Source: Promethearchaeota archaeon
Lineage (GTDB): Archaea; Asgardarchaeota; Lokiarchaeia; Sigyniarchaeales; SOKP01
DNA: 53,092 nt
Direction of reading: 5' to 3'
Assembly: GCA_016839765.1 (NCBI GenBank)
Contig: JAEOTP010000004.1
Location: forward strand, 1 to 53,092
Positions 14,138 to 51,084 of this stretch are shown here, in pieces. Every line of letters begins with the position of its first letter. Position 1 is the stretch's first letter. The notes beneath the pieces are model-generated. The model was not told the origin of the DNA and made no database searches. It was given only the letters and a program-made list of their open reading frames with translations. The position numbers were made by a program, and so were the translations under genes.

Positions 14138-17100
14138 TTACTTCTTCTTCTTTTTAGTTAAATCTTTTAACATTTCTTTAATTTCATCAGCTTTTTCTTT
14201 ATCCCTTGATAACTGTATTTCTTCTCTTTTTTTAGCAGCATCCTCCTTAGATCTCTTAATTTCATTTATAAGTTCTTGCTTTAAATTGATTAATTCCTTC
14301 ATATCTTTTCTGAATTTTTTTGCTGCTTTCTTCTCTATTTCTTTTTCTTCTTTTTGTTTTGATTTCTGTTCTTTAATTTGATTTTTGATTAAATGTGAAA
14401 TTTCACCGGTCATATCGCTTAGTTCGCCAATGGTCCCTTGTATTTTTATCTCGTTTTCCTTTAATCGAATTTCTTCTAAATGTTTTTTACTTACTAATTC
14501 TTCATAAATTTTTTGTATCCTTTTTTCTTCTTCTTTTACTTTTTCTTGGAGTAGTCTAGTATTTTCAATTTCTTTCTCAATAAATTTTGTTTGCTCATCC
14601 CAACCAATTTCGTTAAATTTTGCAATTGCTTGTTCAAAATAATTATAAGCTTTTTCAAAATCGTGATGGATGGCTAAGCGCTTTCCCTCATCTATTAATT
14701 TTAGGCCTTCATCCTTTAGCTGATTGGCATATTGTTGTTGTTGTTTTATTTGGCTCATCTTTTTCTGTTGATCTCTTTTCCTTCTTAAATACTCTTCACG
14801 TCTCTGTCTTATTTCTTCTTGGAATTTTTCATACTCTCTTTGTCTTTTAATTCGTATGTTTTCTTCTCTTTTTTTCTTTTCTATTGAATTTTTCTTTTCT
14901 TGTTCTAAATCCTTTATTAAAATATTAATATTATTTATTTCAGGCTCCCAACCGACCTTTTCAGCTAAAATATTCCTTGCCTGATTATATAAAGAAATAG
15001 CTTTATCATAATCTGGCATTTTCCTCATAAGGTAATTACCTGCTTTTTCTAAAAGAGAATATGCTGCCTCTCTATTGCTTAATTGTTCTTGAACCAACCT
15101 TTCTCGCTCTTGAAGTGCTATTTTTTGTGCTAATTGCTTTTCCCTTTCATATTTTCTTCTTTCTTCGATAAGAACTCTTAATTTCTTTTCTTCTTCAATT
15201 TTTGCTAGTTCTCTTTTTAATTTTGCTTGTTGTTGAACAAATTGCTGTTTTTTAAGATTTTCTACTTTAACTATCATCTCAGTAATAGAATCAGTTGGAA
15301 ATTGTATTTCATTTAAAATTAACATGACTTGTCTGTAAATATTTATTGCCTTATTATAATCCTTTGTTTTAATGAAATGTTCAGCGTCGTCTAAAATTTT
15401 AAATGCTTCTTCTTTCTTTTCTTCCACTGTGGCTTTAACTTTTTCTATTTCTTGAATTTTAATTTTCTTTTCTTTTAGTCTTGCTTTTTCCCTACTTATT
15501 TGCTCAGCTACTTTTTTATTAAATTTTTGCTGCTCTTTTTCTTTTTGAATTTTGATCTCTAATTCCTTTTGTTTCTCTAATTCTTGCTCTCTTGTCTTAT
15601 CGGTGACTTTTAAAATCATTTCTCGTACAGATTCAGTTGGAAATTGAATTTCATTCAAAATTAATTCTGAACTATGATAAAATTCGAGTGCTTTATCATA
15701 TAGAGCTGCTTTTAAAAAGCTTTCAGCTTGGTCTAAAAGATCAAATGCATCTTCTTTTCTTTTTTCCATAAATTCTTTAACAATTTCACGTTTTCTTAGC
15801 TTAATTTGTTTATTTTTTATTTTTTCTTTCTCAAAGTTCATATATTCTACAATTTTTTGCTGAAAAATTTTTTCCTCCTTCTCCTTCCTAATTTCTTGTT
15901 CTAAATCATAATGTCTCGCTAAATCCTTTTCTCTTTTCTTCTCTTGGATATTTAAAATCAATTCTTTAATAGCATCTGTAGGGTACTGAATTTCATTTAA
16001 AACTAATTCTGCTTGGTGATAAAGTTCAATTGCTTGCTCATACAATCCTATATTCAATAAATCCTCTGCTTTATCCATTAAATCAAACGCTTCGATCTTA
16101 AGTGAATTTATTTGTTCCATTATTACTTCTTTCTTTTCGATTTCAATTTTCTTTTCCTTAAACCTTTCCCTTTCTCTCTTCATTTGTTCAGCAAGTTTCA
16201 TTTCAAATTTTCTTTCTTCTTCAATTTGTTTTCTTGCTAGCTCTTTTTCTCTTAGCTTTGCTTTTTCTTTTTCTTCTTTTTTGAAATTAATTTCATTAAT
16301 TGTTTCTCGAATTAATTTTACATATACCCCCTTCCAACCAATACTATTTAATAAATCCAGAGCTTGTTGATATGTTGTCATAGCATCTTCAAATCTTTCT
16401 TGATTCAGTAAAGAATCACCTTTATCAATTAATTTAAATGCTTGATCCTGTTTAGAAAGCTGCTGAGCAGATAACTCTTTTTTTTTAGCCAGTATTTCTT
16501 GTTCTTTTTGCATCTTTTTAATTTCAATTTCTCTTTGGTGCTTTATTCGGTTAAAAAATTTAAAATCTTCCAATTCTTTTTTGACACCTTCCTCAATGTG
16601 CTTTTGTTTCAATAATTCCTTTTCCTTCTTTTTTGTCTCAATCTCCATGATTGCATTATGTATAATAGGGATTTCCTCCTTCCACTGTATCTGTGCAAAA
16701 ATATTAGCAACATTCCTATACGTCTCAATCGCTTCGTTAAATCTACCTAATGAAAGATAATTTTGTGCCTTTTCAATCAGAATAAAAGCCTCCCCTCTCT
16801 TTTGCTCACGATATTCTAATTCTTTATTATTATCTCTTAATTTCAAGGCTTTTTGTTTAAACATTTCCTTTTGTAATTTTAGCTGCTCTACAATATTTAT
16901 CTGAAATTCTTTTTCTCTTCTTTCTCTATCAAGCTTCTTTTGTAGCTCTCCTTGCCTTTTTAAAAGTAGATCCTTTTTTTGATTCTCGATTTCTATTATA
17001 GCATTCCCTATAAATTCTACTTCATCATACCATTGAATTTCTGCAAAGATATTAGCTACAATATGATAATATTCAATTGCTTTATCAAAATTAGCTTCAT

Positions 17101-19090
17101 TGATACATTTTTGAGCTTGATCTAGTATCTTGAAAGCATCCTCCTTCCTTCTCTGTCGATATTCTAATTCTTTATCTTTTTCTCTTATTTTTACTTCTTT
17201 TTTCCTCAGCTTCTCTCGTTCTGTTCGTAACTGAGTCGCAATTCTTTCTTGAAAATCATATTCTTCTTTTTGTCTTTCAATTTCTCTTTGGATATCTTTT
17301 TGTTTTTTTATTTCAATTTCGTTCTTCATATTTTCTAATTCTTTAATCGATGCTTCAATCAGAGGTATTTCTTCCTGCCATTGAATACTCGTAAAAATGT
17401 TACCTGCATTTTGATAAGCTAAAATTGCATTATCTAAATTCCCCATTTTAATATACTTTTGGGCTTCATCTAGCGCTTTAAATGCGGAATCTTTACGTTG
17501 CTCGATAAATCCTTGCTTATCCTTATCCAATTGGATTTCAATTTCTTTTTCTTTTAACTTTTTGCGTTCTCTTTCTAATAGAGTTGAAATTTGCTTCTGA
17601 AACTCTAATTCTTGTTTTGATTTTTCCTCTAATTTTTTCTGTGCTTCAAACTCCTTTTCATATTGCGTTTCTTTTAGTTTCTTCACACTATCGATAGTGG
17701 TTTTAATTGTAGGGATATAAGATTCCCAACCTGATCCAAGATCAAGGAGTATTTCTAACGCATTTTGATATTCTTTGATTGCTCCATTAAAATCTTGATT
17801 TTGTTGGAGTTTGTTATCAGCTTTATCTAAAAAGGTAAAAAATTGGCTCTCTTTTTCCAATTGCGATTGTCTTTTTTGTACATATTCTCTATGTTGAACT
17901 TCAAAATCTTTTGCTGTCTGTATAACATGTTCTTTTTCTTTTAGAAACAACTGGTCTTGTATTTTTTCAAGATTATTTTCTCTCTTTTTTCTTATGTCTT
18001 CTAACTCTTCTTCTGCATTTTGCTTTTCCTTTATATCATCTATAAAATTCACAACAGGTTGGATATATGAATCCCATTCAATCGATTTAAATAATTCTAT
18101 GGCTCTTTGAAATTTTTCAATGGCTTTTGTGTACTCCTTTTCCCTTTCTAGTTTTTTAGCAAAATCAATCAAATTAAATGCTTCAATTTGTATATCTTCC
18201 TCAGATCTTCTTTTATACTCAAATTCAACTACTTTAGAACTATCTGGTAGCATTTGGGAATCAATTTCAGAATCATGAACAGCAGAAGATTCTTCAATTC
18301 GTTGTTTCGTTTCAAACCTTTCATAAATCTCTTTCTCTCTTATAAGCTTTTCAATTATAAATTGAATATTTTGCGTTTGGTCTTTCCATCCGATTGAGTT
18401 TAATAAATCAACTGCTTTTTCATAATTTTTAATTGCTTCATCAAATTTTTTATTTTTCTCATGAAATTTAGCGTTATCAATAAACGCAAAAGCATCATTT
18501 TGTACTTTCTCTTGTTTTGCTTTCATTTCTTGATATTTTCTAAGTTGTTCTGCCTTTTCGATACTCTTCTTTTCACCAAAAGCATCCACTACCTGAAGTT
18601 TCCCTCCTATTTGCGAAGGTAGTTGTATAGAAATATCCTTATCACTCTTAGTAGTTTTTTGAGTTTTATCCTTATCTGTAAGAGCAGCAACTTTCATTTT
18701 TAGATTTTGCAGCTGTGATTCAGACCACCCAGCTTGAGTTAATAACTTTATAGCAGAATTATATCGCTCGATTGCATCTTGAAAACTTCCATCTGATTCT
18801 AGTTCAGAGGCTCTGTCAATTATTACAAAAGCCTGATCCTGAAGTTTTTCAATTTGAGCACTTAGTTGTTCATGCTGATATAATCTCTGTTCTTTCATGA
18901 AAGTTTTTAAACCCTCTATTCTATCATACAATTCACTAACCCTATGCATCATATAACCACTTTTTTTAAGATTATCGGCAGCTAATTGATAGTTTTCAAT
19001 AGCTTCCTGTTCTTTTCCTTCTGCTTCAAATCTCTGGGCTATCTCTAAGTACTTGAGGGCTTCTTGAGCTAAATATTCATTATTCTGCAT
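14138..19090 (-). CDS. 1650-aa repeat protein: 14 TPR/MIT-like helical modules separated by charged helical spacers
   Basis: Motif AF.L(I/L)D.A......(G).F..AI..Y..A..I...I.W recurs 14 times with ~115-aa period; spacers are E/K/R/Q-rich. Confidence 0.85.
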   Translation of the reverse strand: MQNNEYLAQEALKYLEIAQRFEAEGKEQEAIENYQLAADNLKKSGYMMHRVSELYDRIEGLKTFMKEQRLYQHEQLSAQIEKLQDQAFVIIDRASELESDGSFQDAIERYNSAIKLLTQAGWSESQLQNLKMKVAALTDKDKTQKTTKSDKDISIQLPSQIGGKLQVVDAFGEKKSIEKAEQLRKYQEMKAKQEKVQNDAFAFIDNAKFHEKNKKFDEAIKNYEKAVDLLNSIGWKDQTQNIQFIIEKLIREKEIYERFETKQRIEESSAVHDSEIDSQMLPDSSKVVEFEYKRRSEEDIQIEAFNLIDFAKKLEREKEYTKAIEKFQRAIELFKSIEWDSYIQPVVNFIDDIKEKQNAEEELEDIRKKRENNLEKIQDQLFLKEKEHVIQTAKDFEVQHREYVQKRQSQLEKESQFFTFLDKADNKLQQNQDFNGAIKEYQNALEILLDLGSGWESYIPTIKTTIDSVKKLKETQYEKEFEAQKKLEEKSKQELEFQKQISTLLERERKKLKEKEIEIQLDKDKQGFIEQRKDSAFKALDEAQKYIKMGNLDNAILAYQNAGNIFTSIQWQEEIPLIEASIKELENMKNEIEIKKQKDIQREIERQKEEYDFQERIATQLRTEREKLRKKEVKIREKDKELEYRQRRKEDAFKILDQAQKCINEANFDKAIEYYHIVANIFAEIQWYDEVEFIGNAIIEIENQKKDLLLKRQGELQKKLDRERREKEFQINIVEQLKLQKEMFKQKALKLRDNNKELEYREQKRGEAFILIEKAQNYLSLGRFNEAIETYRNVANIFAQIQWKEEIPIIHNAIMEIETKKKEKELLKQKHIEEGVKKELEDFKFFNRIKHQREIEIKKMQKEQEILAKKKELSAQQLSKQDQAFKLIDKGDSLLNQERFEDAMTTYQQALDLLNSIGWKGVYVKLIRETINEINFKKEEKEKAKLREKELARKQIEEERKFEMKLAEQMKRERERFKEKKIEIEKKEVIMEQINSLKIEAFDLMDKAEDLLNIGLYEQAIELYHQAELVLNEIQYPTDAIKELILNIQEKKREKDLARHYDLEQEIRKEKEEKIFQQKIVEYMNFEKEKIKNKQIKLRKREIVKEFMEKRKEDAFDLLDQAESFLKAALYDKALEFYHSSELILNEIQFPTESVREMILKVTDKTREQELEKQKELEIKIQKEKEQQKFNKKVAEQISREKARLKEKKIKIQEIEKVKATVEEKKEEAFKILDDAEHFIKTKDYNKAINIYRQVMLILNEIQFPTDSITEMIVKVENLKKQQFVQQQAKLKRELAKIEEEKKLRVLIEERRKYEREKQLAQKIALQERERLVQEQLSNREAAYSLLEKAGNYLMRKMPDYDKAISLYNQARNILAEKVGWEPEINNINILIKDLEQEKKNSIEKKKREENIRIKRQREYEKFQEEIRQRREEYLRRKRDQQKKMSQIKQQQQYANQLKDEGLKLIDEGKRLAIHHDFEKAYNYFEQAIAKFNEIGWDEQTKFIEKEIENTRLLQEKVKEEEKRIQKIYEELVSKKHLEEIRLKENEIKIQGTIGELSDMTGEISHLIKNQIKEQKSKQKEEKEIEKKAAKKFRKDMKELINLKQELINEIKRSKEDAAKKREEIQLSRDKEKADEIKEMLKDLTKKKKK

Positions 19091-21569: not shown

Positions 21570-22097
21570 ATGTCGAGTTTTAAATTAAAGGTATTGCTTA
21601 CCGGAGCCGCGGCCGTTGGGAAAACGAGTTTGGTCCAACGATTTATAAAGAATCGATTTGCGGCAAACTATAAGTTAACTGTTGGAGTAGACATCTTGAC
21701 CAAGGACGTAGAATTCAGATCGGGAGAAATAGCCACCTTAAGTATTTGGGATATCGGAGGACAGCAACGTTTTGAATTCATTAGATCAACATTTTATAAG
21801 GGAGCTGCTGGAGCTCTATTAGTTTTTGATTTAACAAGAGAACAAACTTACACAGAAACAAGGAAGTGGCTTACTGAGATACGCCAATTTGCTGGAGAAA
21901 ATATCCCATTTGTTTTGATTGGGAATAAGGCAGATTTACTTGAGGACGTTGGAATGGTAATTGATCGAAATGAAGCCAGCTCTTTTGCTGAAAAAGAAAA
22001 AAGCATTTACATCGAAACTTCAGCTAAAACTGGTATTAATGTTGATGAATCGTTTACAGAATTAACTAGAAGAATTATTGATTCTCGAACGCAATAA
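21570..22097 (+). CDS. Rab-like small GTPase
   Basis: G1 GAAAVGKT, G2 TVGVD, G3 WDIGGQ, G4 NKAD, G5 ETSAK; RabF-like RFEFIR, FYKGA, LVFDLT; no C-terminal Cys. Confidence 0.93.
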   Translation: MSSFKLKVLLTGAAAVGKTSLVQRFIKNRFAANYKLTVGVDILTKDVEFRSGEIATLSIWDIGGQQRFEFIRSTFYKGAAGALLVFDLTREQTYTETRKWLTEIRQFAGENIPFVLIGNKADLLEDVGMVIDRNEASSFAEKEKSIYIETSAKTGINVDESFTELTRRIIDSRTQ

Positions 22098-23731: not shown

Positions 23732-25726
23732 TTAATTAAATTTTTTTAATAGTTCTTCTAATTCATGAATTTGGCTATTAACGTTTTTCTCAATTTCTCT
23801 TAATTTATTTTTCTTATTCTCAAGTTCTTTAGCAGTAATTTCTCCTGTTAATTCTTTCATATCAAATTCTAATGACATTTTTGAAATATTTGCCCTCTTA
23901 ATTTTTAAATCCATCAACGAATTTTCTAGATCTCCCTTCTGTTGAATGTTTAATGTAGTACTAGGTTCGATTTGTGCACTTTTTTGTTGTGTGGTTGTAA
24001 TAGGTGTATCTGGAACTGGTTTTTTTTCTGGTTTAATTAACTTTGTTGGAACGACTGGTACAGGAGTTTGTGGTTGTTCAGTGGGTTGAATCTCAGGTGG
24101 TCTCTGAGTGACCGGAGTTGGTTTTAATTTTGGCGGGGTTACTTGTTTTATTGATTTTGGTTTGATTAATTTAGTTGGAGCAACAGCCTTAGGTTCCTTT
24201 TTTACTTGTTGATTTTCAACTTGAGCATATGGAGATATTGTTAATTTTTCCTTTGCATCCTTAGGAACTGTTGTTATAGTTTTAGGTCTTTCTTTTACCA
24301 TAAAATCTTCCGGATTTAGATTTAAACCCACATCTAAGGGGGGTGATTCAGGTTTTTGAAGACTTTCTGGTTCAGCTATAGGTTCTTTTGGTGGAGGAGG
24401 GGGAGGGATAGCTTTTTTTTCTGGAATTTCAGGAATGCTCTCTTCTTCAATTATTTTAACAGGTCCCTTATGCACTTTAGGTTCTATGGGGTCTGCTGAT
24501 TTTCCTAGAACTTTTGGTTTTTCAAGTGTTATTGGTTCCTCTGGAGGTTTTCGTAGATCAGGAGGTAGCGGTGGTGTTTCAACTGGTTTAGGCTCTGTGG
24601 CGACTTTTTCTGTTGAAATTGGAACCTCCTCTGGTTTAGCTTTTTTAGGTTCGGTAATCGCTGGAGAGGTTGGTTGTGGAGGTGAAACTTGCTGAAGCAT
24701 GTTTTTAATTTTTTGAGATTTTTCGAAAAATTCTCTTCCTAATGAATCATCACCTAATTCAATACATAAATCACTAATTTTCTCAAAAATGTTTGCTGCT
24801 CTTTCAAACTCAGCATTCTCTAATGCTTTTGTGGCTTCTTCTATATGAGTATCTCTTTTCAATAAAGGTTGCAATAATGGTGATACTTCTGCACTCATTT
24901 CTAAAATATCTGCAATAATTGTTATCATTTTATCTCTGTTAACAGGATCTTTTGCAATCATTGAATAAGTCTTTAAACCTAAAATTTTTTCAATTTGATC
25001 AGGCTTCATTGCAGTTTGTAGATCTTGTTTATTCCCTATTACAGCGGTATGAGCATGGGGTGCTTGTACTTTTATTAATTCCAAGAAAAACTTACTTTTC
25101 TCTACATTTTCTAAACTAGATTCTGTAATTAAAAGGACAGCATCGCTACCTTTGATAAAATTATTCCAAAGATAACTAAATTGCTCTTGACCTGCAAAAT
25201 CCCAGAGGTGAAAATGTAATTTTCCAATCTTAATTGTAGCAATATCACCAGTAATTGTTGGAATATGCTGCATAGGAATTTCTTCTGCTTTTATAAGCCT
25301 TGTTATTGTTGTTTTACCAACTCCAGAAAATCCTACCAGTGATATCTTTGGTCTTAAATTTTTATGAATTGCATCAATGGTAGGATCAAAAACTTCAAAG
25401 GTTTTATCGTCATATTTATGCTTTATAATATCTTCAAATAGATTTAAAAACTCTTTTTTACATTTTATTAATTCTTTTTTAATATTATCAAAATTATCAG
25501 TTAATCCAGTAACAAACAAAAATATTACTTCTAATTTTGTTTCGGTGATATATGAAATTCTATATTTATAATAATCATGATAGTTTACTTTATCTGTACT
25601 TTTAACAAAAGCATCTTTCATCAAGTCAACAACTAATGCATTAAATATTTCTGTTTTTAGGGCTTTCCCAAAATGTCTATAATAGATCAAATCACTGCCC
25701 TTATAGATGTATACTTGTCTTAGAAT
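23732..25726 (-). CDS. Multidomain Arf-like GTPase: longin-like N-domain, GTPase, helical bundle, Pro-rich region, C-terminal coiled coil
   Basis: GFSGVGKT, PTITG, WDFAGQ..SYLW, NKQDL. The frame is open upstream of TTG 25690 to 25732 and gives ILRQVYIYKGSDLIYYRHF, so the start is placed at ATT 25726 (uncertain). Confidence 0.85.
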   Translation of the reverse strand: MLRQVYIYKGSDLIYYRHFGKALKTEIFNALVVDLMKDAFVKSTDKVNYHDYYKYRISYITETKLEVIFLFVTGLTDNFDNIKKELIKCKKEFLNLFEDIIKHKYDDKTFEVFDPTIDAIHKNLRPKISLVGFSGVGKTTITRLIKAEEIPMQHIPTITGDIATIKIGKLHFHLWDFAGQEQFSYLWNNFIKGSDAVLLITESSLENVEKSKFFLELIKVQAPHAHTAVIGNKQDLQTAMKPDQIEKILGLKTYSMIAKDPVNRDKMITIIADILEMSAEVSPLLQPLLKRDTHIEEATKALENAEFERAANIFEKISDLCIELGDDSLGREFFEKSQKIKNMLQQVSPPQPTSPAITEPKKAKPEEVPISTEKVATEPKPVETPPLPPDLRKPPEEPITLEKPKVLGKSADPIEPKVHKGPVKIIEEESIPEIPEKKAIPPPPPPKEPIAEPESLQKPESPPLDVGLNLNPEDFMVKERPKTITTVPKDAKEKLTISPYAQVENQQVKKEPKAVAPTKLIKPKSIKQVTPPKLKPTPVTQRPPEIQPTEQPQTPVPVVPTKLIKPEKKPVPDTPITTTQQKSAQIEPSTTLNIQQKGDLENSLMDLKIKRANISKMSLEFDMKELTGEITAKELENKKNKLREIEKNVNSQIHELEELLKKFN

Positions 25727-25732
25727 CGTGAA

Positions 25733-25737
25733 TCACC
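25733..25737 (-). promoter_or_regulatory. Shine-Dalgarno GGTGA for the longin-GTPase gene
   Basis: GGTGA lies 6 nt upstream of ATT (25726) and 3 nt upstream of ACG (25729). Confidence 0.55.
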
Positions 25738-25766
25738 ATAAAATTATTTATAAGAACTCCAATTTT

Positions 25767-26258
25767 TTAACTTGAAATAAATTTAACAAGATCTTTGATA
25801 ATTGAATACTTTTTCTCTTTAAATTTTTCATGTTTGATAGTATCTTCAATTTTTTTAATCTCTTTTGAAAAATCAAAAAATGAAAACTCATTTATCTCTT
25901 GCTTTTTAGAAGTTTCACCTACTTTTTTTAAAAACACACTAATACTTGGCATAAGTTTTGCTAAATTAACGTCTAAATCCAATTTTGAAATTAAAATTAA
26001 CTCTTCATTGAACGTAAATAAGTAATTATAATCTTGAGCTTCTAAAGCAAAAGAATTTATTTTTTTTAAATTCAAATCTTTAGCAATATCTTGAGAATTA
26101 GCTATAAGCGATAGAATTTTTTGGGGTATGACTTTTCCTTTAGAAAATTCTTTAATTGCCGTTCCAAGTATTATACCATATCGATTTGCTATTGCACATT
26201 CTGAATTTAGTTCTGTTTTTAATTGTGAGATTATATCATCGTAGTTAATTTGTTTCAT
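25767..26258 (-). CDS. Roadblock/LC7 (MglB/LAMTOR-like) domain protein with C-terminal helical extension
   Basis: Helix - CAIANRYGIILGT beta-hairpin - helix - three strands - VNLAKL helix; 40 nt upstream of the GTPase gene. Confidence 0.7.
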   Translation of the reverse strand: MKQINYDDIISQLKTELNSECAIANRYGIILGTAIKEFSKGKVIPQKILSLIANSQDIAKDLNLKKINSFALEAQDYNYLFTFNEELILISKLDLDVNLAKLMPSISVFLKKVGETSKKQEINEFSFFDFSKEIKKIEDTIKHEKFKEKKYSIIKDLVKFISS

Positions 26259-26366: not shown

Positions 26367-27152
26367 GTGAAAATATATAAATTTCATTTTATAGAAAAAG
26401 AATCAGATATCACTATTATCTCAGAGTCTAAAAATGCTATTTTAAGAGCAAAAAATGAATTTCATCTTCATAGAAGAATTCTGGAAAGATATTTAATAAA
26501 GCATAAGGAATTTCTTACTTCATTTTCACCGGTTAAAGTCCAAACTGATTATGATATAATCAATCTAATGGTTAAAGTAGCACTCCTATGTGATGTTGGT
26601 CCAATGGCTACTGTGGCAGGAGCATTTGCAGATTTGATGCTTAAAATAATGAAATCTAAAAATGATGATTTTGAAACCGCAAAAATCGCATTGATAGAAA
26701 ATGGTGGAGAAATAGCCAACGATTCTGAAAAAACAATGAAAATTGCCCTTTTTGCTGGAAATAATGAATTAAATCTGAATATTGGATTTTTAATTGAAAA
26801 AAAAGACTGCCCCATTGGTATTGCGACTAGTTCAGCAACAATAGGACATGCAATTAGTCTTGGCCAAGCAGACGCAGTGACCATTTTTGCCGAAAATGCT
26901 ACAATAGCAGATGGAGCTGCAACAAAAATTGGAAATATTGTAAAAGGGGAAGATATTGAGAAATCTATCAAAAACGGATTAGACATTGTTGATGATTTAG
27001 AAGATATTAGAGGAGTTTTTATTTCTCGAAAAGACAAAATAGGAATTACTGGAAATATTCCTCAAATGGTTAAGATAGAAGGCACTAAAGAATTAATACT
27101 AAAGAATAAGATTGAATATTTCCTTCCAGGTAATTTTGAGATTTTTAAATAA
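26367..27152 (+). CDS. UPF0280/ApbE-like family protein
   Basis: VGPMATVAGA, ENGGEI, GIATSSATIGHAISLG.ADAVT, ADGAAT..GN. Confidence 0.88.
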   Translation: MKIYKFHFIEKESDITIISESKNAILRAKNEFHLHRRILERYLIKHKEFLTSFSPVKVQTDYDIINLMVKVALLCDVGPMATVAGAFADLMLKIMKSKNDDFETAKIALIENGGEIANDSEKTMKIALFAGNNELNLNIGFLIEKKDCPIGIATSSATIGHAISLGQADAVTIFAENATIADGAATKIGNIVKGEDIEKSIKNGLDIVDDLEDIRGVFISRKDKIGITGNIPQMVKIEGTKELILKNKIEYFLPGNFEIFK

Positions 27153-29424
27153 CCCAATAATAGGGAAATTCTATACCATTTTCACTTTTAGAAGAACAAA
27201 TCTTATTCATGTAATCCATACTATAATATTCTTCCATTTCTTCTTCTGTTAATCTTTCGAAAACATCAAATCCGGTAAATGCCATGTAATTATCATCTAA
27301 TATTAAATAAATATCTGTATTTAGATCCTCCTTCATTTGTTGTAACTTATTCGTACCATTTGGGTAGAAATGGTCTGCTGGTTTAAAATAACCTTTTGGT
27401 GCTTGTTTGAAATGAATAAGATCGGATAATAAAATACTTTTATTATGTTCTTCATAAGGATATTCAAAATACATAACTACATAGGGAATTCCAAATTCAC
27501 AAATTATAAAATTTACATCAGAAGTATAGCGTGAATACCATTGAAGGGAGTATACTTCACGTTTATGTAGACTATATTCTTTATCGTCGATATCAAACAG
27601 TTGATTTGAAAATTGGGCAAAAAAAGTAAAAATAACTACACTTAAAATAAAAATTTTGATTTTAATCGTAGTAATTGAGTTTAATTTAATTAATTTATAT
27701 AAATAAGATATAAAACCAAAAATTAAAACGGGGGAGATTAATAATAATATTCTTCCGGACCAAAATTCATGCAGAACAAACACATCCAGAGAAAAAGCAG
27801 CTAAATATATTATTGTCATACCAAATAACCATAATAATAACGATTTACCTCTTGGATTTTTTTGGAATAAAATTAACCCCCATGTTCCGAAAAATATCAT
27901 AATGAAAAATTCAAGTGCAATTAATAATCTTGAAAAGTATAAATCAAGAAAATTATAATTCACTACTAAAGCTGAAATAAGAAATATTGCACTGAATGAT
28001 AAGAAAATTGGAAATATTAGTTTATCTTCTATTTTTTTATAATATCCATATTTCTGACCCGAAATAACTAATTTAAATCTATTTTTTTCAAATTTAATAC
28101 CGCTTCGTAATTTTAAAACTATTAGAAATGCAATAACACCCCCTATAACTAGAAAATACCAGGGCAAACCTAAAATATCAACAATAGTCCAATGAGCACT
28201 TATTCCACTAATATTAAATAAAATGACAAACGCTGCAAGACAGGTACATAAGATTACAAAATCTATTCCTCGCTTATAACTTCTAGTAAAATAAATTAGA
28301 AAAATGAAGGCAAATGATACCACATATATTGTTGCTATAAGAGAGTGAGTAAATAAGGCACTAATATAGATTAATATAATAAAAATATATGTGAAAGTTA
28401 AATTTGAGAATATTTCTTTCTTCCTAGGAGGTTCTTCTTTAACAAAATTTTCTAGTCTCACATAGAGTAAAAAGAAAATGTATAAGGATTGAATGGATGC
28501 TAAAGATGTTGGCCAAAATTGATACATTGTATTGCTAAAACCCAAAGAAGTAAATTCTACTAAAAAAACTCCTAAAATGGCTAAGTTACGGTTTTTAAAA
28601 ATCCGTTTTAAAATATTATAAATTAAAAGCCCTGAAACCAAAAATGTATAAAAAGAGAAATATTGTGCTAAAAGTAAATGATCTATTCCGGTAAAAAAAT
28701 GAATTAATGCCGCAAATAAATGTAAACCCAAAGCACCGAAATATTGATCAACTGGCAAATAATTAAGATTATTTATCAATTTAACCATAAAGATATGATA
28801 CATCGCATCAGTACCATAAAAATAGCTGAATCTTACGCCATTCAGTATTGACATCAAAATTAAAAAGATTACTACTAATATTCCAGATAAAGGTATTCTT
28901 CTTTTAAAATAATTTAAAATAGAAAAACTCTCGTAAAATGATTGTTTATCAACGCTAAATTCTTCAACTTTTAAGAAAAGAGAAGTTTTAGTCCTTTCTT
29001 CATAAATAATGATAAATATTAACAATGAAAAATATATGACTAAGGTTAAAAGAAAGAAGAAATACCCTGTAATAGGAATTTCAAAAATATTTCCAAGATA
29101 TGCAGATAAGATATAAAGAGTTAAATTCGCAACTATCGTTAAACTAATTTTTTCTAAAAAATTGAAATTCTTATTTCTAAATATTATAAAAAATAAAGGA
29201 TAAAAAGGTAAAAATATAACAATAAAAGCTGTGCTAAGTAAACATATCAGTTTAAAAAAAAATTGAAATATATACATATTATTTATTTCCAGAAAAACTG
29301 ATATGCCAATTAGATTGAAAAAAACTATAATAAAGGATAATAAAGATAAAATAAGTACAGTAATTTGTTTTCTTGTATAAATGAATAATATTATTTTATT
29401 TAAAGTAATCCTTAGTTTACTCAT
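27145..29424 (-). CDS. Polytopic membrane protein, probable GT-C-fold glycosyltransferase
   Basis: Many TM helices; GTDAMYH loop after the N-terminal TMs; soluble C-terminal domain; at the edge of the glycan cluster. Confidence 0.6.
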   Translation of the reverse strand: MSKLRITLNKIILFIYTRKQITVLILSLLSFIIVFFNLIGISVFLEINNMYIFQFFFKLICLLSTAFIVIFLPFYPLFFIIFRNKNFNFLEKISLTIVANLTLYILSAYLGNIFEIPITGYFFFLLTLVIYFSLLIFIIIYEERTKTSLFLKVEEFSVDKQSFYESFSILNYFKRRIPLSGILVVIFLILMSILNGVRFSYFYGTDAMYHIFMVKLINNLNYLPVDQYFGALGLHLFAALIHFFTGIDHLLLAQYFSFYTFLVSGLLIYNILKRIFKNRNLAILGVFLVEFTSLGFSNTMYQFWPTSLASIQSLYIFFLLYVRLENFVKEEPPRKKEIFSNLTFTYIFIILIYISALFTHSLIATIYVVSFAFIFLIYFTRSYKRGIDFVILCTCLAAFVILFNISGISAHWTIVDILGLPWYFLVIGGVIAFLIVLKLRSGIKFEKNRFKLVISGQKYGYYKKIEDKLIFPIFLSFSAIFLISALVVNYNFLDLYFSRLLIALEFFIMIFFGTWGLILFQKNPRGKSLLLWLFGMTIIYLAAFSLDVFVLHEFWSGRILLLISPVLIFGFISYLYKLIKLNSITTIKIKIFILSVVIFTFFAQFSNQLFDIDDKEYSLHKREVYSLQWYSRYTSDVNFIICEFGIPYVVMYFEYPYEEHNKSILLSDLIHFKQAPKGYFKPADHFYPNGTNKLQQMKEDLNTDIYLILDDNYMAFTGFDVFERLTEEEMEEYYSMDYMNKICSSKSENGIEFPYYWVI

Positions 29425-47403: not shown

Positions 47404-47952
47404 TTAATGCTCATCTGGTAAATAACCCATTTCATTTAGAGCATATAATATATTATTTTTACTTTCCTCGACTGTTTGTTTATCAGTTTCGACAATGATC
47501 TCTACATTATCAGGTTCTTCGAAGGGATGATCAATTCCAGTGAAATTTTTAATCTCACCGGCTCTAGCTTTAGAATACATACCTTTTACATCTCGTTTCT
47601 CGCATTCCTCTAGTGAACATTTAACATAAACAAGTATATAATCACCAATTTCATTCCGCGAATAAGCACGTATTTTATTATATGGTGATACAAAAGAGGC
47701 AAGGACAGCAACACCATTTCGGGTTAAAAGTTTAGCAACAAACGTGACTCTCTCAATGTTCATATTTCGATCCTCTTCAGTGAATCCCAAATCACGTGTT
47801 AAACTTTTTCTAACAATATCTCCATCTAGGCGTTCCACTTTCATCCCTCTTTTTCTCAGATCATCAGCAACAGCATCTGCAAGTATAGATTTCCCTGAGC
47901 AAGGAAGTCCTGTAAACCATAACGTAAATCCTTTATGTTCTATTTTTTTCAC
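47404..47952 (-). CDS. cysC: Adenylyl-sulfate (APS) kinase
   Basis: WFTGLPCSGKS, LDGDIVR, LGF...DR, RDVKGMY, FTGIDHPFEEP. Confidence 0.95.
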   Translation of the reverse strand: MKKIEHKGFTLWFTGLPCSGKSILADAVADDLRKRGMKVERLDGDIVRKSLTRDLGFTEEDRNMNIERVTFVAKLLTRNGVAVLASFVSPYNKIRAYSRNEIGDYILVYVKCSLEECEKRDVKGMYSKARAGEIKNFTGIDHPFEEPDNVEIIVETDKQTVEESKNNILYALNEMGYLPDEH

Positions 47953-47957
47953 CCATT

Positions 47958-49346
47958 TTAAAATTCAATTACATTTCCTTCCATATCATTTGGAATTTCA
48001 AATCCTAAAATATTTAGACAAGTTGGAGCAATATCTAATATGTTTTTTGTGCCTAAATCCTTTCCAATTTTACTTTTTGGATTATAAATAATGTATATTC
48101 CGTAATAGTCATGTACAGCATCATCTGGTCCCGTGTCATTTTCTTTTAAATACATAGATTCATAACCTACTGTACCAGCAGATCTCCAATTTAAATCATC
48201 AAAATATACCATTAAATCAGGTGGATCTCCGCGAATTATTGCATAAAAATCTCCAGGTTTATAAACTTTTGTATTCATGGGGTTACCAGAGTCATCCTTT
48301 ATTGATTTTATCTTTTCTGCTATAAGGTCCCTCATTTTTTCGTAATCTTCCTTTTTAATAATACCTTCAGGTTCTCTTCCCTCAACATTTAAGAAAATCC
48401 TAGCATAATAACCACCCCAACCCCAAGCATATGTTTTGTTCCAATCAATTTTTGCATCATCTAATCTGGTTCCTGGTTTGGGTTTCCCTTTAAACTTTAA
48501 TAATCCAAGTTCTTCAAAGGCCATATTAACACATATTAAACCTTTCATTGCTTTTGCTCCATGATCGGATGCTACAACAATAGTTGTATTATCATCTAAC
48601 AAGTCCAAAATTTCCCCTACTTCTTCATCTAAATATTTATAATAGTTACGCATTTCAAGCTCGAATTGATTTCCAGGAACGTATTTGTCATGTTTTTTAT
48701 CAAAATATTTCCAAAAAGCATGATGAAATCTATCTAAACCTATTATAACAAATTGGAAAAAGTCCCAATCTTTATTTTTCATCAAATATTTGATTGTTTT
48801 AAACTGAATCCTAGTCATTTCATATATCTCCTTTAATAAAGCCGTTTTATTTTCTACTCTAAAATTTGCATCTAAAATGTAATTGCCAATTTCATCTTCT
48901 ATTTCTTGTTTCAGTTCAGGGGGATATGTATAAGTTGAGTCTGTATCTGGTGTTATAAAGCCAGCAATTAGGTTACCATTAATTGATTTGACAGGATATG
49001 TGGGAGGTACTCCAATAATAATGCTTTTTAATCCCTTTCTACCAATTATATCCCAAATGGTGGGTTCTTTTACTGAATTTGAAGTGGCTATCCAAAAATC
49101 ATTATAAGCAAACTTCTTTCGATGCCTAAATCCATAAATTCCAAGTGTACCTGCTTTTTTACCTGTTGCCATAACCATCCATGCTGGTATCGTAATTGGA
49201 GGATCTGAACTTCTTAATTTTCCATATACTCCATTTTCCATTAATTTTCTGATATTTGGGCAATCATCGATAAAATCATTGAATAAAGTTCTTGGTGTAG
49301 CGCAATCTAAACCAATAAGGACCAATTTCTTTTTTTTTTTACTCAT
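47958..49346 (-). CDS. Alkaline phosphatase superfamily protein (type I phosphodiesterase/NPP-like)
   Basis: IGLD (D14), PPITIPAW (Thr52 nucleophile position), DRFHH, SDHG, distal H, LDIAPT. Confidence 0.88.
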   Translation of the reverse strand: MSKKKKKLVLIGLDCATPRTLFNDFIDDCPNIRKLMENGVYGKLRSSDPPITIPAWMVMATGKKAGTLGIYGFRHRKKFAYNDFWIATSNSVKEPTIWDIIGRKGLKSIIIGVPPTYPVKSINGNLIAGFITPDTDSTYTYPPELKQEIEDEIGNYILDANFRVENKTALLKEIYEMTRIQFKTIKYLMKNKDWDFFQFVIIGLDRFHHAFWKYFDKKHDKYVPGNQFELEMRNYYKYLDEEVGEILDLLDDNTTIVVASDHGAKAMKGLICVNMAFEELGLLKFKGKPKPGTRLDDAKIDWNKTYAWGWGGYYARIFLNVEGREPEGIIKKEDYEKMRDLIAEKIKSIKDDSGNPMNTKVYKPGDFYAIIRGDPPDLMVYFDDLNWRSAGTVGYESMYLKENDTGPDDAVHDYYGIYIIYNPKSKIGKDLGTKNILDIAPTCLNILGFEIPNDMEGNVIEF

Positions 49347-49391
49347 TATGATACTAACTCAAGGCTCTCATTTTTATAATTAACATAAAAA

Positions 49392-50540
49392 TCATGTAAC
49401 AAATGGATTTTTATACTTTAGAATCACTTCTGCTACTTCTTTGCGCATAACTTCTGGATCAGGTGGGTTTCCAGCCTTTAAAGCATTTCTAATTTCACGA
49501 CCTGCAAAGAAATTCTGCATTTCTGGAGGATGGGGACAAATCTTATCATTCACAACCGCGTCACACTTTTTACATTTTGAGAAGGAGCGAAATTTAATTG
49601 GTTCAATACCTAAATCTGGAAATTTATCAAAAATGAAATGAGCATCATAAGGTCCATAATAATTCCCTACTCCTGCATGATCTCTCCCAATAATTATATG
49701 TGTACATCCAAAATTCTTTCTTGCAATTGCATGAAATATAGCTTCTTTTGGTCCCGCATATCTCATCTCTGTTTCGAATGTACTCATTACTACGCGATTT
49801 TTAGGATAATATTCTTTAATTAATACTTTATATGCTTCGATAATTACACTGTCTAAGAAATCACCTTGCTTTTTCTTACCAATTACAGGATTTATGAACA
49901 AACCATCTACATAAGTCAAGCCTGCTTTTTGGATATATTCATGTCCTAAATGTGGTGGGTTTCTTGTTTGAAACGCCACAACTCGTTCCCATCTCATTTC
50001 CTTGAAAAGGACTCTTGTTTCTATAGGCTTTAGGTCTATTTCTGGGAATGTAGCTTTAGGTTCATTGATTAAAAATATTTGTCCTCCCATTAGTTTTTCT
50101 TTATAGTTTAAAACACTGTTCACTCCTGGATGATCTCTTTCTAAAGTTCCATATGTTTTGCTTGCATAATCCTTTTTGTCAAAATCATAGATATCTTCTA
50201 CTCTCATTAATGCAATAGGCTTATTCTCACCATTTGTTAGGATGATCTGATCATCGCTTTTGATATTCTTGAGTTCATTTTCTGAAACATCTAAAGTTAT
50301 AGGAAAAGGCCAAGGAATATCACTTTCCAAATACATAGACTCAAGAACATAATTATAATCATTTTCATTCATAAAGCCTTCTAATGGGCTAAATACTCCA
50401 AATGCAATGTTTTTAATCACTTTTAATGTTTCAGGTCTTACTTTAATTGTTTCAAATTCGTTGACCTGACCCAAAATTCTTTCCCTTTCAAAATTAGGTA
50501 AAACCTTATTTATTAAAGTACCTCCATGTGGCGGAATCAT
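49392..50540 (-). CDS. sat: Sulfate adenylyltransferase (ATP sulfurylase)
   Basis: PHGG, FSPLEGFM, FQTRNPPHLGHE, MRYAGPKEA, GRDHAG, MRKEV. Confidence 0.96.
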   Translation of the reverse strand: MIPPHGGTLINKVLPNFERERILGQVNEFETIKVRPETLKVIKNIAFGVFSPLEGFMNENDYNYVLESMYLESDIPWPFPITLDVSENELKNIKSDDQIILTNGENKPIALMRVEDIYDFDKKDYASKTYGTLERDHPGVNSVLNYKEKLMGGQIFLINEPKATFPEIDLKPIETRVLFKEMRWERVVAFQTRNPPHLGHEYIQKAGLTYVDGLFINPVIGKKKQGDFLDSVIIEAYKVLIKEYYPKNRVVMSTFETEMRYAGPKEAIFHAIARKNFGCTHIIIGRDHAGVGNYYGPYDAHFIFDKFPDLGIEPIKFRSFSKCKKCDAVVNDKICPHPPEMQNFFAGREIRNALKAGNPPDPEVMRKEVAEVILKYKNPFVT

Positions 50541-50588
50541 AATTTTTTCCTTTTTTAATATGTTGTAATTATTATATAAAGCTAAATT

Positions 50589-50828
50589 TTAATCAATATA
50601 TCCCAAATCTCGTAATCTCTGCTTTACCTTCTCTTCTTCTTCCTTTGTAAAAGCTTGTTTAGATCTTTCTTCTTCCTCTATAGAAGAAAGAACTTGCCTA
50701 AGAACATACGTCACATAACTGGAGACCGAAGAAAATCCAGTTCCTTTCATTCGCTCTTTTATTTTCTCTGAAAGGACTTTGGGAATTGATACAGTTGTAT
50801 ATTCAACTTTATGTTCATCATCTGACAT
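50589..50828 (-). CDS. CopG/ribbon-helix-helix regulator with C-terminal EEEEKVKQRLRDLGY tail
   Basis: YTTVSIP strand plus helices with SSVSSYVTYVLR; first gene of the sat operon. Confidence 0.85.
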   Translation of the reverse strand: MSDDEHKVEYTTVSIPKVLSEKIKERMKGTGFSSVSSYVTYVLRQVLSSIEEEERSKQAFTKEEEEKVKQRLRDLGYID

Positions 50829-51084
50829 TATAACTCATTTTAAAATATAATTATATTTAATTAAATAGAATTAAGACATATTAAAAAATCTTACTAAATG
50901 CCCTAATATTAAGGATTCTTAATAAAATAAGAGTATGAATAAAACTTCAAAAAAATAAAGGTTTTTCAGTAATAAAATTTTGTTAATTTGATTCAAATAT
51001 TTATTAAGTAAAGGAGATAATAAATAAATATATACATTAAATATCTATAGGGCAACTCTTTAAATTACTTAAATACTCAAGATT

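Follow-up and report, generated by a model that had tools for sequence, protein, structure and literature searches.

The window, i.e. the whole 53,092-nucleotide stretch analysed here (contig JAEOTP010000004.1 of a Lokiarchaeia archaeon, Promethearchaeota), carries on its minus strand an operon that encodes a putative ribbon-helix-helix (RHH) protein, ATP sulfurylase (Sat), an alkaline phosphatase (AP)-superfamily enzyme and adenosine 5'-phosphosulfate (APS) kinase (CysC). Sat and CysC together synthesize 3'-phosphoadenosine 5'-phosphosulfate (PAPS). A non-canonical sulfation involving the AP enzyme is well supported, and its direct partner is most likely a tyrosine tail on the RHH protein, not a glycan. 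That the AP enzyme is a loader that sulfates this tail tyrosine, as a carrier and/or feedback switch, is in our judgment evenly balanced; a full relay, in which the charged tyrosine then sulfates a glycan, is proposed more tentatively. The cassette itself is real, conserved and already published. The operon genes and the elements discussed below are as follows.

50589..50828, minus strand: RHH/CopG-like protein, 79 residues, with an acidic C-terminal helix ending in LxxLGY; proposed autoregulator and sulfuryl carrier
49392..50540, minus strand: Sat, 382 residues (TIGR00339/PRK04149 above cut-off)
47958..49346, minus strand: AP-superfamily enzyme, COG3379-type, NPP-like fold, 462 residues, no LGY tail (PF01663, E 6e-48)
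47404..47952, minus strand: CysC, 182 residues (TIGR00455 above cut-off)
49191-49193, minus strand: Thr52 codon of the AP enzyme
50592..50651, minus strand: RHH tail, residues 60-79, acidic helix plus LxxLGY; Tyr77 codon at 50598-50600
50848..50873, no strand assigned: putative operator of overlapping TAAT-N8-ATTA palindromes (TAATTA units, 10-bp period), 20-45 nucleotides upstream of the RHH start

The chemistry that we infer, including donor, acceptor and direction of transfer, would begin with PAPS supplied by Sat and CysC. Thr52 in the two-metal site of the AP enzyme would take the sulfuryl group from PAPS, or possibly from APS, freeing 3'-phosphoadenosine 5'-phosphate (PAP); the RHH tail helix would dock and Tyr77 would accept the group to form a protein-bound aryl sulfate. 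The tyrosine sulfate would most likely be passed on to acceptor-specific, tail-less sulfatase-fold enzymes encoded in glycan clusters (in this genome the protein at C38:3191-4651), leading to sulfation of surface glycans. Sulfation of Tyr77 could also tune binding of the RHH protein to the upstream operator.

Co-inheritance with Sat and displacement by a small sulfotransferase

Phylogenetic profiling of the AP clade with sat and cysC, a check proposed in the first-pass annotation of the window, was run on 301 Asgard genomes; these are related, so that the counts are descriptive and kin are not independent. An AP orthologue is present in 83 of the 301 genomes and sat in all 83, the two genes being adjacent or within ~3 kb where contigs permit, and a tailed RHH gene occurs in 80 of the 83, the remaining three breaking off at contig ends. 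The cassette is found also in Bathyarchaeia, Hydrothermarchaeota, Aminicenantes and Bacillota, with sat or cysC at 76 of 80 loci, RHH at 71 of 80 and a glycan-cluster setting at 55 of 80; cassettes L060 and L064 lie outside glycan clusters. Conservation of the AP enzyme matches that of Sat (median 57.5% vs 55.6%, r 0.96), and a single fixed substrate therefore fits better than variable glycans. Fusions were found that join Sat to AP, CysC to AP and tail, AP to a family 2 glycosyltransferase (GT2; P0144) and AP to a methyltransferase. Two AP orthologues (P0145, P0194) are joined to a pyruvate-kinase barrel, one of them also to Sat and one with an LGY tail at its end.

The distribution of ordinary P-loop sulfotransferases (PF13469) is close to complementary among genomes with sat: AP is present in 37 of the 40 that lack PF13469, and PF13469 in 59 of the 62 that lack AP. 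Sulfite reductase was found in one and PF00685 in two of these 37 AP-bearing genomes. The PAPS reductase family PF01507 is also missing from several 94-100% complete Loki genomes without PF13469; matches to it occur in 28 of 37 related genomes and are mostly archaeal proteins of 600-700 residues. As a separate observation, 33 Asgard genomes, 11 of them in the host genus (g1), have PF13469 with no sat found, which points to an unexplained PAPS source or to assembly gaps.

Replacement is also seen within the operon. In two Asgard genomes the AP slot, X in RHH-sat-DHH-X-cysC, is filled by a 195-residue PF13469/PF00685 protein, and a sister operon with a small sulfotransferase of ~190 residues in this place (RHH-sat-DHH-small sulfotransferase-cysC) recurs in metagenomic loci. 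The AP core occurs in 135 loci, the small sulfotransferase in 100 and both in none, the loci being partly redundant; among Loki genomes the small sulfotransferase is present in 9 of 11 with an AP-less cassette vs none of the six AP-bearing genomes tested. The tailed RHH protein accompanies the small sulfotransferase as well. Exchange for a sulfotransferase would be unexpected of a pyrophosphatase or PAP phosphatase. Look-ups of four bacterial homologues of the small sulfotransferase were mixed (AP/sulfatase neighbours in two, nothing informative in two), so that it is not linked to the tail in every case.

The AP enzyme and its predicted tyrosine partner

The ligands D14, D205, H209, D261, H262 and H412 and the nucleophile Thr52 are all present in the AP enzyme and invariant in 20 orthologues, and the formylglycine sulfatase motif CxPxR (C/S-x-P-x-R) is absent, its place being taken by PITIPAW; the first-pass annotation had thus read the active site correctly, as it had the missing signal peptide, no signal or transmembrane segment being detected (maximal hydropathy 1.05). 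The enzyme has no PF00685/PF13469 domain. Its homologues carry the label predicted AlkP-superfamily phosphohydrolase/phosphomutase, which we take to correspond to COG3379. The structure model (predicted local distance difference test, pLDDT, 94.5) has as nearest solved folds the nucleotide pyrophosphatases/phosphodiesterases (NPP/ENPP; TM ~0.6, Z ~30, root-mean-square deviation 3.5, 345 aligned residues, 12-17% identity), and PDB searches found no close relative (best E 2e-5, profile). With the NPPs (Xac NPP, ENPP1-7) the AP enzyme shares the fold, the Thr nucleophile and the two-metal ligand set. It differs from them in being cytoplasmic, in having a peptide predicted to bind at the active site, and in Phe73, with which the active-site Asn (Xac Asn111) aligns in a weak profile alignment (F in 18 and L in 2 of 20 orthologues); in NPP this Asn contacts a phosphodiester oxygen. 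In a quick tree the window AP falls among orthologues that bear a tail in cis (support 88, not firm), apart from long paralogues.

These features invite the explanation that the AP enzyme is a hydrolase that serves PAPS synthesis, by removal of pyrophosphate (PPi) or turnover of APS, PAPS or PAP, with the RHH tail as a plug and with PAPS going to ordinary sulfotransferases, of which the host has two. The NPP-like fold and metal set, the strict linkage to sat, the fusion to Sat and the fusions of AP, pyruvate-kinase barrel and Sat speak for it, and PPi degradation is the published guess for the counterpart PYCH_17550 (PMC8268124). It gives no reason to expect that AP and a sulfotransferase exclude each other, nor that AP is found in nearly all sat-bearing genomes without PF13469; the position of Phe73, the 11 genomes of g1 and the cassette of Pyrococcus yayanosii, which comes with no identified sulfotransferase, also count against it. 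Moreover, other proteins could remove PPi and PAP: the host has a membrane pyrophosphatase (above cut-off) and a HAL2/CysQ-like gene (below cut-off), and DHH pApase or CysQ-family genes share an operon with AP in several lineages (DHH in L054, L055, L110 and L119). The host genome has no homologue of the operon-type DHH gene. We consider a hydrolase rather unlikely. The first-pass annotation had left the enzyme as either a sulfotransferase or a PAP/PAPS-processing enzyme; the former gains support from profiling, replacement by a P-loop enzyme, fusions to Sat and CysC and the Agl30/Agl31 case described below, and the PAP-processing half is weakened because of the co-operonic pApase and CysQ genes and the HAL2/CysQ-like gene of the host.

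The proposed partner is the RHH tail, in which L72, L75, G76 and Y77 are invariant in 62 of 62 homologues. Of the 156 distinct C-terminal motifs in all the sequences collected, 150 show Tyr and one shows Phe, compared with Tyr in 2 of 22 in a genome control. The window AP has no LGY tail, and some AP orthologues (38-44% identity) bear one in cis, modelled as a helix joined through a disordered linker. A PDB search with the tail found nothing; matches to the cis-tail model end at residue ~462, so that the tail is barely tested by structure search. Co-folding of the AP enzyme with RHH residues 40-79 gave a score of 0.86 against 0.00 for the best control, a mark that, in a benchmark, 58 of 80 solved pairs and 2 of 110 mismatched ones attained (figures that apply only roughly, with own alignments). 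Contact agreement among runs was at least 92% and partner pLDDT at least 69. In the predicted complex Tyr77 contacts Thr52 and is surrounded by the invariant residues R74, D159, R163 and Y313; PDB searches found no solved complex that resembles AP plus tail. The score itself shows neither affinity nor chemistry.

Sulfation genes of the host and known systems

The host metagenome-assembled genome is 95.9% complete. The first-pass annotation had described PAPS synthesis with no canonical consumer, and the window indeed yields no PAPS/APS reductase, sulfite reductase or P-loop sulfotransferase; for the genome as a whole the claim fails, two PF13469 sulfotransferases being encoded on other contigs (C22:35610-36749 and C28:34707-35849), with homologues that share an operon with sat-cysC in other Asgards. 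The genome search that it had proposed, for sulfotransferases and cysH, thus found the former and not the latter. CysH, sulfite reductase and AprA were not found in the host genome, and sulfate assimilation or respiration is therefore rejected as the purpose of the operon.

The host candidate for a glycan sulfotransferase is the protein at C38:3191-4651 (L168), a tail-less sulfatase-fold protein in which Thr replaces the formylglycine and whose gene lies beside GT4 and GT2 genes and a rhamnosyl O-methyltransferase-family gene. A PF05935 match at C30:15046-16272 was set aside, as it appears to be membrane-anchored and outward-facing. Enzymes of the C38 type occur in 45 of 96 genomes with both sat and RHH vs 2 of 49 with sat and no RHH, both of these being contig-edge cases; they track the tail and not PAPS supply alone. 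In family f9 the C38-type enzyme is found in only two genomes, where its gene shares an operon with those of the small sulfotransferase and a tailed RHH protein.

The closest published counterpart by gene content is the "sulfate assimilation" cluster of P. yayanosii (pych_17520-17560), for which passages of Jin et al. 2021 (PMC8268124) give a CopG-like gene, sat, a gene annotated as type I phosphodiesterase/NPP and cysC in the same order as here; unlike here, a DHH pApase gene lies between sat and the AP gene (PYCH_17550), which is speculated to degrade PPi. Sulfotransferase and sulfite reductase were not identified there, and the passages on the cluster make no mention of the LxxLGY tail. The second comparison is with Agl30 (VNG1056C) and Agl31 (VNG1057C) of Halobacterium salinarum, AP-fold glycan sulfotransferases by deletion and by gain in Haloferax volcanii (PMC11980604). 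From the published cloning primers, Agl30 ends in HLEDLGYL and Agl31 in LEELGYT (PMC11980604). They share with the window AP an AP-superfamily core, the lack of a P-loop and a glycan-cluster setting. Their tail, however, is in cis, whereas in the cassette here the RHH protein bears LxxLGY; their best BLAST matches are sulfatases and arylsulfatases and they are acceptor-specific, whereas the window AP is NPP-like and tied to sat-cysC. By fold class the C38 protein is a candidate for their nearer analogue.

The Agl30/Agl31 precedent suggests a more direct scheme, in which the AP enzyme would itself be a PAPS:glycan or PAPS:lipid sulfotransferase and the tail an unsulfated structural lid supplied in trans. 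Its displacement by a sulfotransferase, the frequent glycan-cluster setting and the AP-GT2 fusion are as expected from such direct transfer. Strong conservation of AP, equal to that of Sat even though the glycan clusters differ greatly, is not, nor is a tail tyrosine that fills the site beside Thr52 in the co-fold and is almost never Phe, nor a tailed RHH protein that also travels with the small sulfotransferase; taken together, these points make direct transfer decidedly unlikely.

Charging of the tail tyrosine by the AP enzyme would have a parallel in DltX and PatA, the tyrosine shuttles of the DltB-DltX-DltD and PatA-PatB systems (PMC12148441), whose proposed logic is that a group is ferried from one active site to another by an invariant Tyr; this Tyr lies within a short motif at the C-terminus of a microprotein or in a fusion to an enzyme. 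The parallel is an analogy only, those systems having MBOAT/SGNH folds and moving an acyl group, not a sulfuryl group, across a membrane. A general prokaryotic sulfuryl-carrier system may exist, in which the AP clade or, interchangeably, the 190-residue P-loop sulfotransferase charges the LxxLGY tyrosine in trans or in cis and Agl30/31 and C38-type enzymes discharge it onto glycans; as with the full relay, we put this forward with less than even confidence.

The cassette is spread widely across archaea and bacteria, and the role of its central enzyme is so far a guess; the hypothesis of one tyrosine, on a tail of 20 residues, would link that role with the donor of Agl30/31, the only known AP-fold sulfotransferases. 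If the relay is true, it would be an undescribed route of cell-surface sugar sulfation through a protein-bound aryl sulfate. It would involve a protein tyrosine sulfotransferase that has no P-loop and a transcription factor serving also as metabolic carrier, and surface glycans of Asgard archaea would be expected to be sulfated. A general carrier system would in addition supply the missing donor of Agl30/31, and many genes of glycan loci now called "sulfatase-like" or "phosphodiesterase" would have to be reassigned.

A number of points weigh against loading of the tail tyrosine and its onward transfer. The two-metal/Thr chemistry of the nearest fold, NPP, attacks phosphorus. The predicted docking of Tyr77 on Thr52 is just as well explained by a tail that plugs the active site and inhibits it, and the co-fold model may have picked up this docking from predicted monomers with a tail in cis. 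PF13469 is present in 46 of the 83 AP-bearing genomes, and the two ordinary sulfotransferases of the host explain PAPS demand there without AP. Only about half of the RHH-bearing genomes have a C38-type enzyme, and in six genomes that have one, no RHH and no sat were found. In three f15 genomes (81-83% complete; L051-L053, G010, G056, G021) AP is paired with sat and a search of the genome found no APS kinase; some cassettes from incomplete genomes being without cysC, APS may serve as donor. The tails of Agl30/31 were read from primers, a primer-derived pattern search for the Hbt. salinarum agl locus having found nothing; the Hfx. volcanii expression constructs bore C-terminal tags, and word searches of the paper (PMC11980604) found no mention of in vitro assay, donor or PAPS. 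The literature searched held no biochemical data on AP orthologues and, within its partial coverage, nothing relevant on COG3379, AP-fold tyrosine shuttles or Asgard sulfotransferases and PAPS.

The putative operator and neighbouring features

The RHH protein has no Pfam or NCBIfam match; its Atlas clusters are named "CopG family" (0.96), and matches to NikR are weak (E 0.25). The TAAT-N8-ATTA element occurs in 54 of 105 regions upstream of homologous RHH genes, compared with ~6 in shuffles, in sequences that are related and AT-rich. It is common throughout the window (17 vs 11.3+-3.4), so that only its conservation upstream of RHH genes counts; this conservation suggests that the RHH protein is also an autoregulator. 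Another match, at 50556-50571 in the 48-nucleotide RHH-sat gap, is perhaps a second operator and perhaps chance. The conserved palindrome, the retention of RHH at the head of the operon and the cassettes outside glycan clusters would all suit a purely regulatory device, in which sulfate or AMP, placed on the RHH tyrosine by the AP enzyme or the small sulfotransferase, would signal PAPS or APS levels and govern the operon, the group going no further. Such a device leaves no reason for the same tail to be fused to many AP/sulfatase-fold enzymes that do not bind DNA, Agl30/31 among them, or for C38-type enzymes to follow the tail and not sat alone, and we hold it to be very unlikely.

Variants of the tailed proteins were seen elsewhere. 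A tailed RHH protein with a 140-residue N-terminal extension heads the cassette in Bathyarchaeia-type genomes (L118:398-1048, L127:1492-2139); haloarchaeal plasmids L071 and L072 carry tailed RHH homologues beside sulfatase-like genes, in L072 also beside glycosyltransferases, with no sat-cysC nearby; and a PF01507 protein with an LGY-type tail (L161:4166-4975) is operonic with a tailed RHH gene and a short AP gene. TauE/SafE-family transporter genes are often part of the cassette (L056, L059, L060, L063-L066, L068), and several loci among these have two or three tailed RHH genes.

In the window the four co-oriented open reading frames, in the order RHH, sat, AP and cysC, are separated by gaps of 48, 45 and 5 nucleotides, and the operon is flanked by GT2, GT4, TagF-like and flippase genes, in agreement with the tight spacing and the glycosyltransferase setting given at first pass. 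A scan for sigma-70 promoters and terminators gave results at chance level. At 43926-47302 genes for an NTP transferase and a GlpT/PgtP-like transporter converge on a TagF-like CDP-glycerol transferase gene beside the flippase gene, possibly for polyol-phosphate modification of a glycan, and a 759-residue protein with many membrane spans and no Pfam or NCBIfam match is encoded at the edge of the glycan cluster (27145-29424). Further away, sequence inspection alone points to Asgard eukaryote-like proteins: a charged helical repeat protein of 1650 residues (14138-19090), a Rab-like small GTPase (21570-22097) and a GTPase with a long proline-rich linker, encoded beside a roadblock-like gene (23732-26258).

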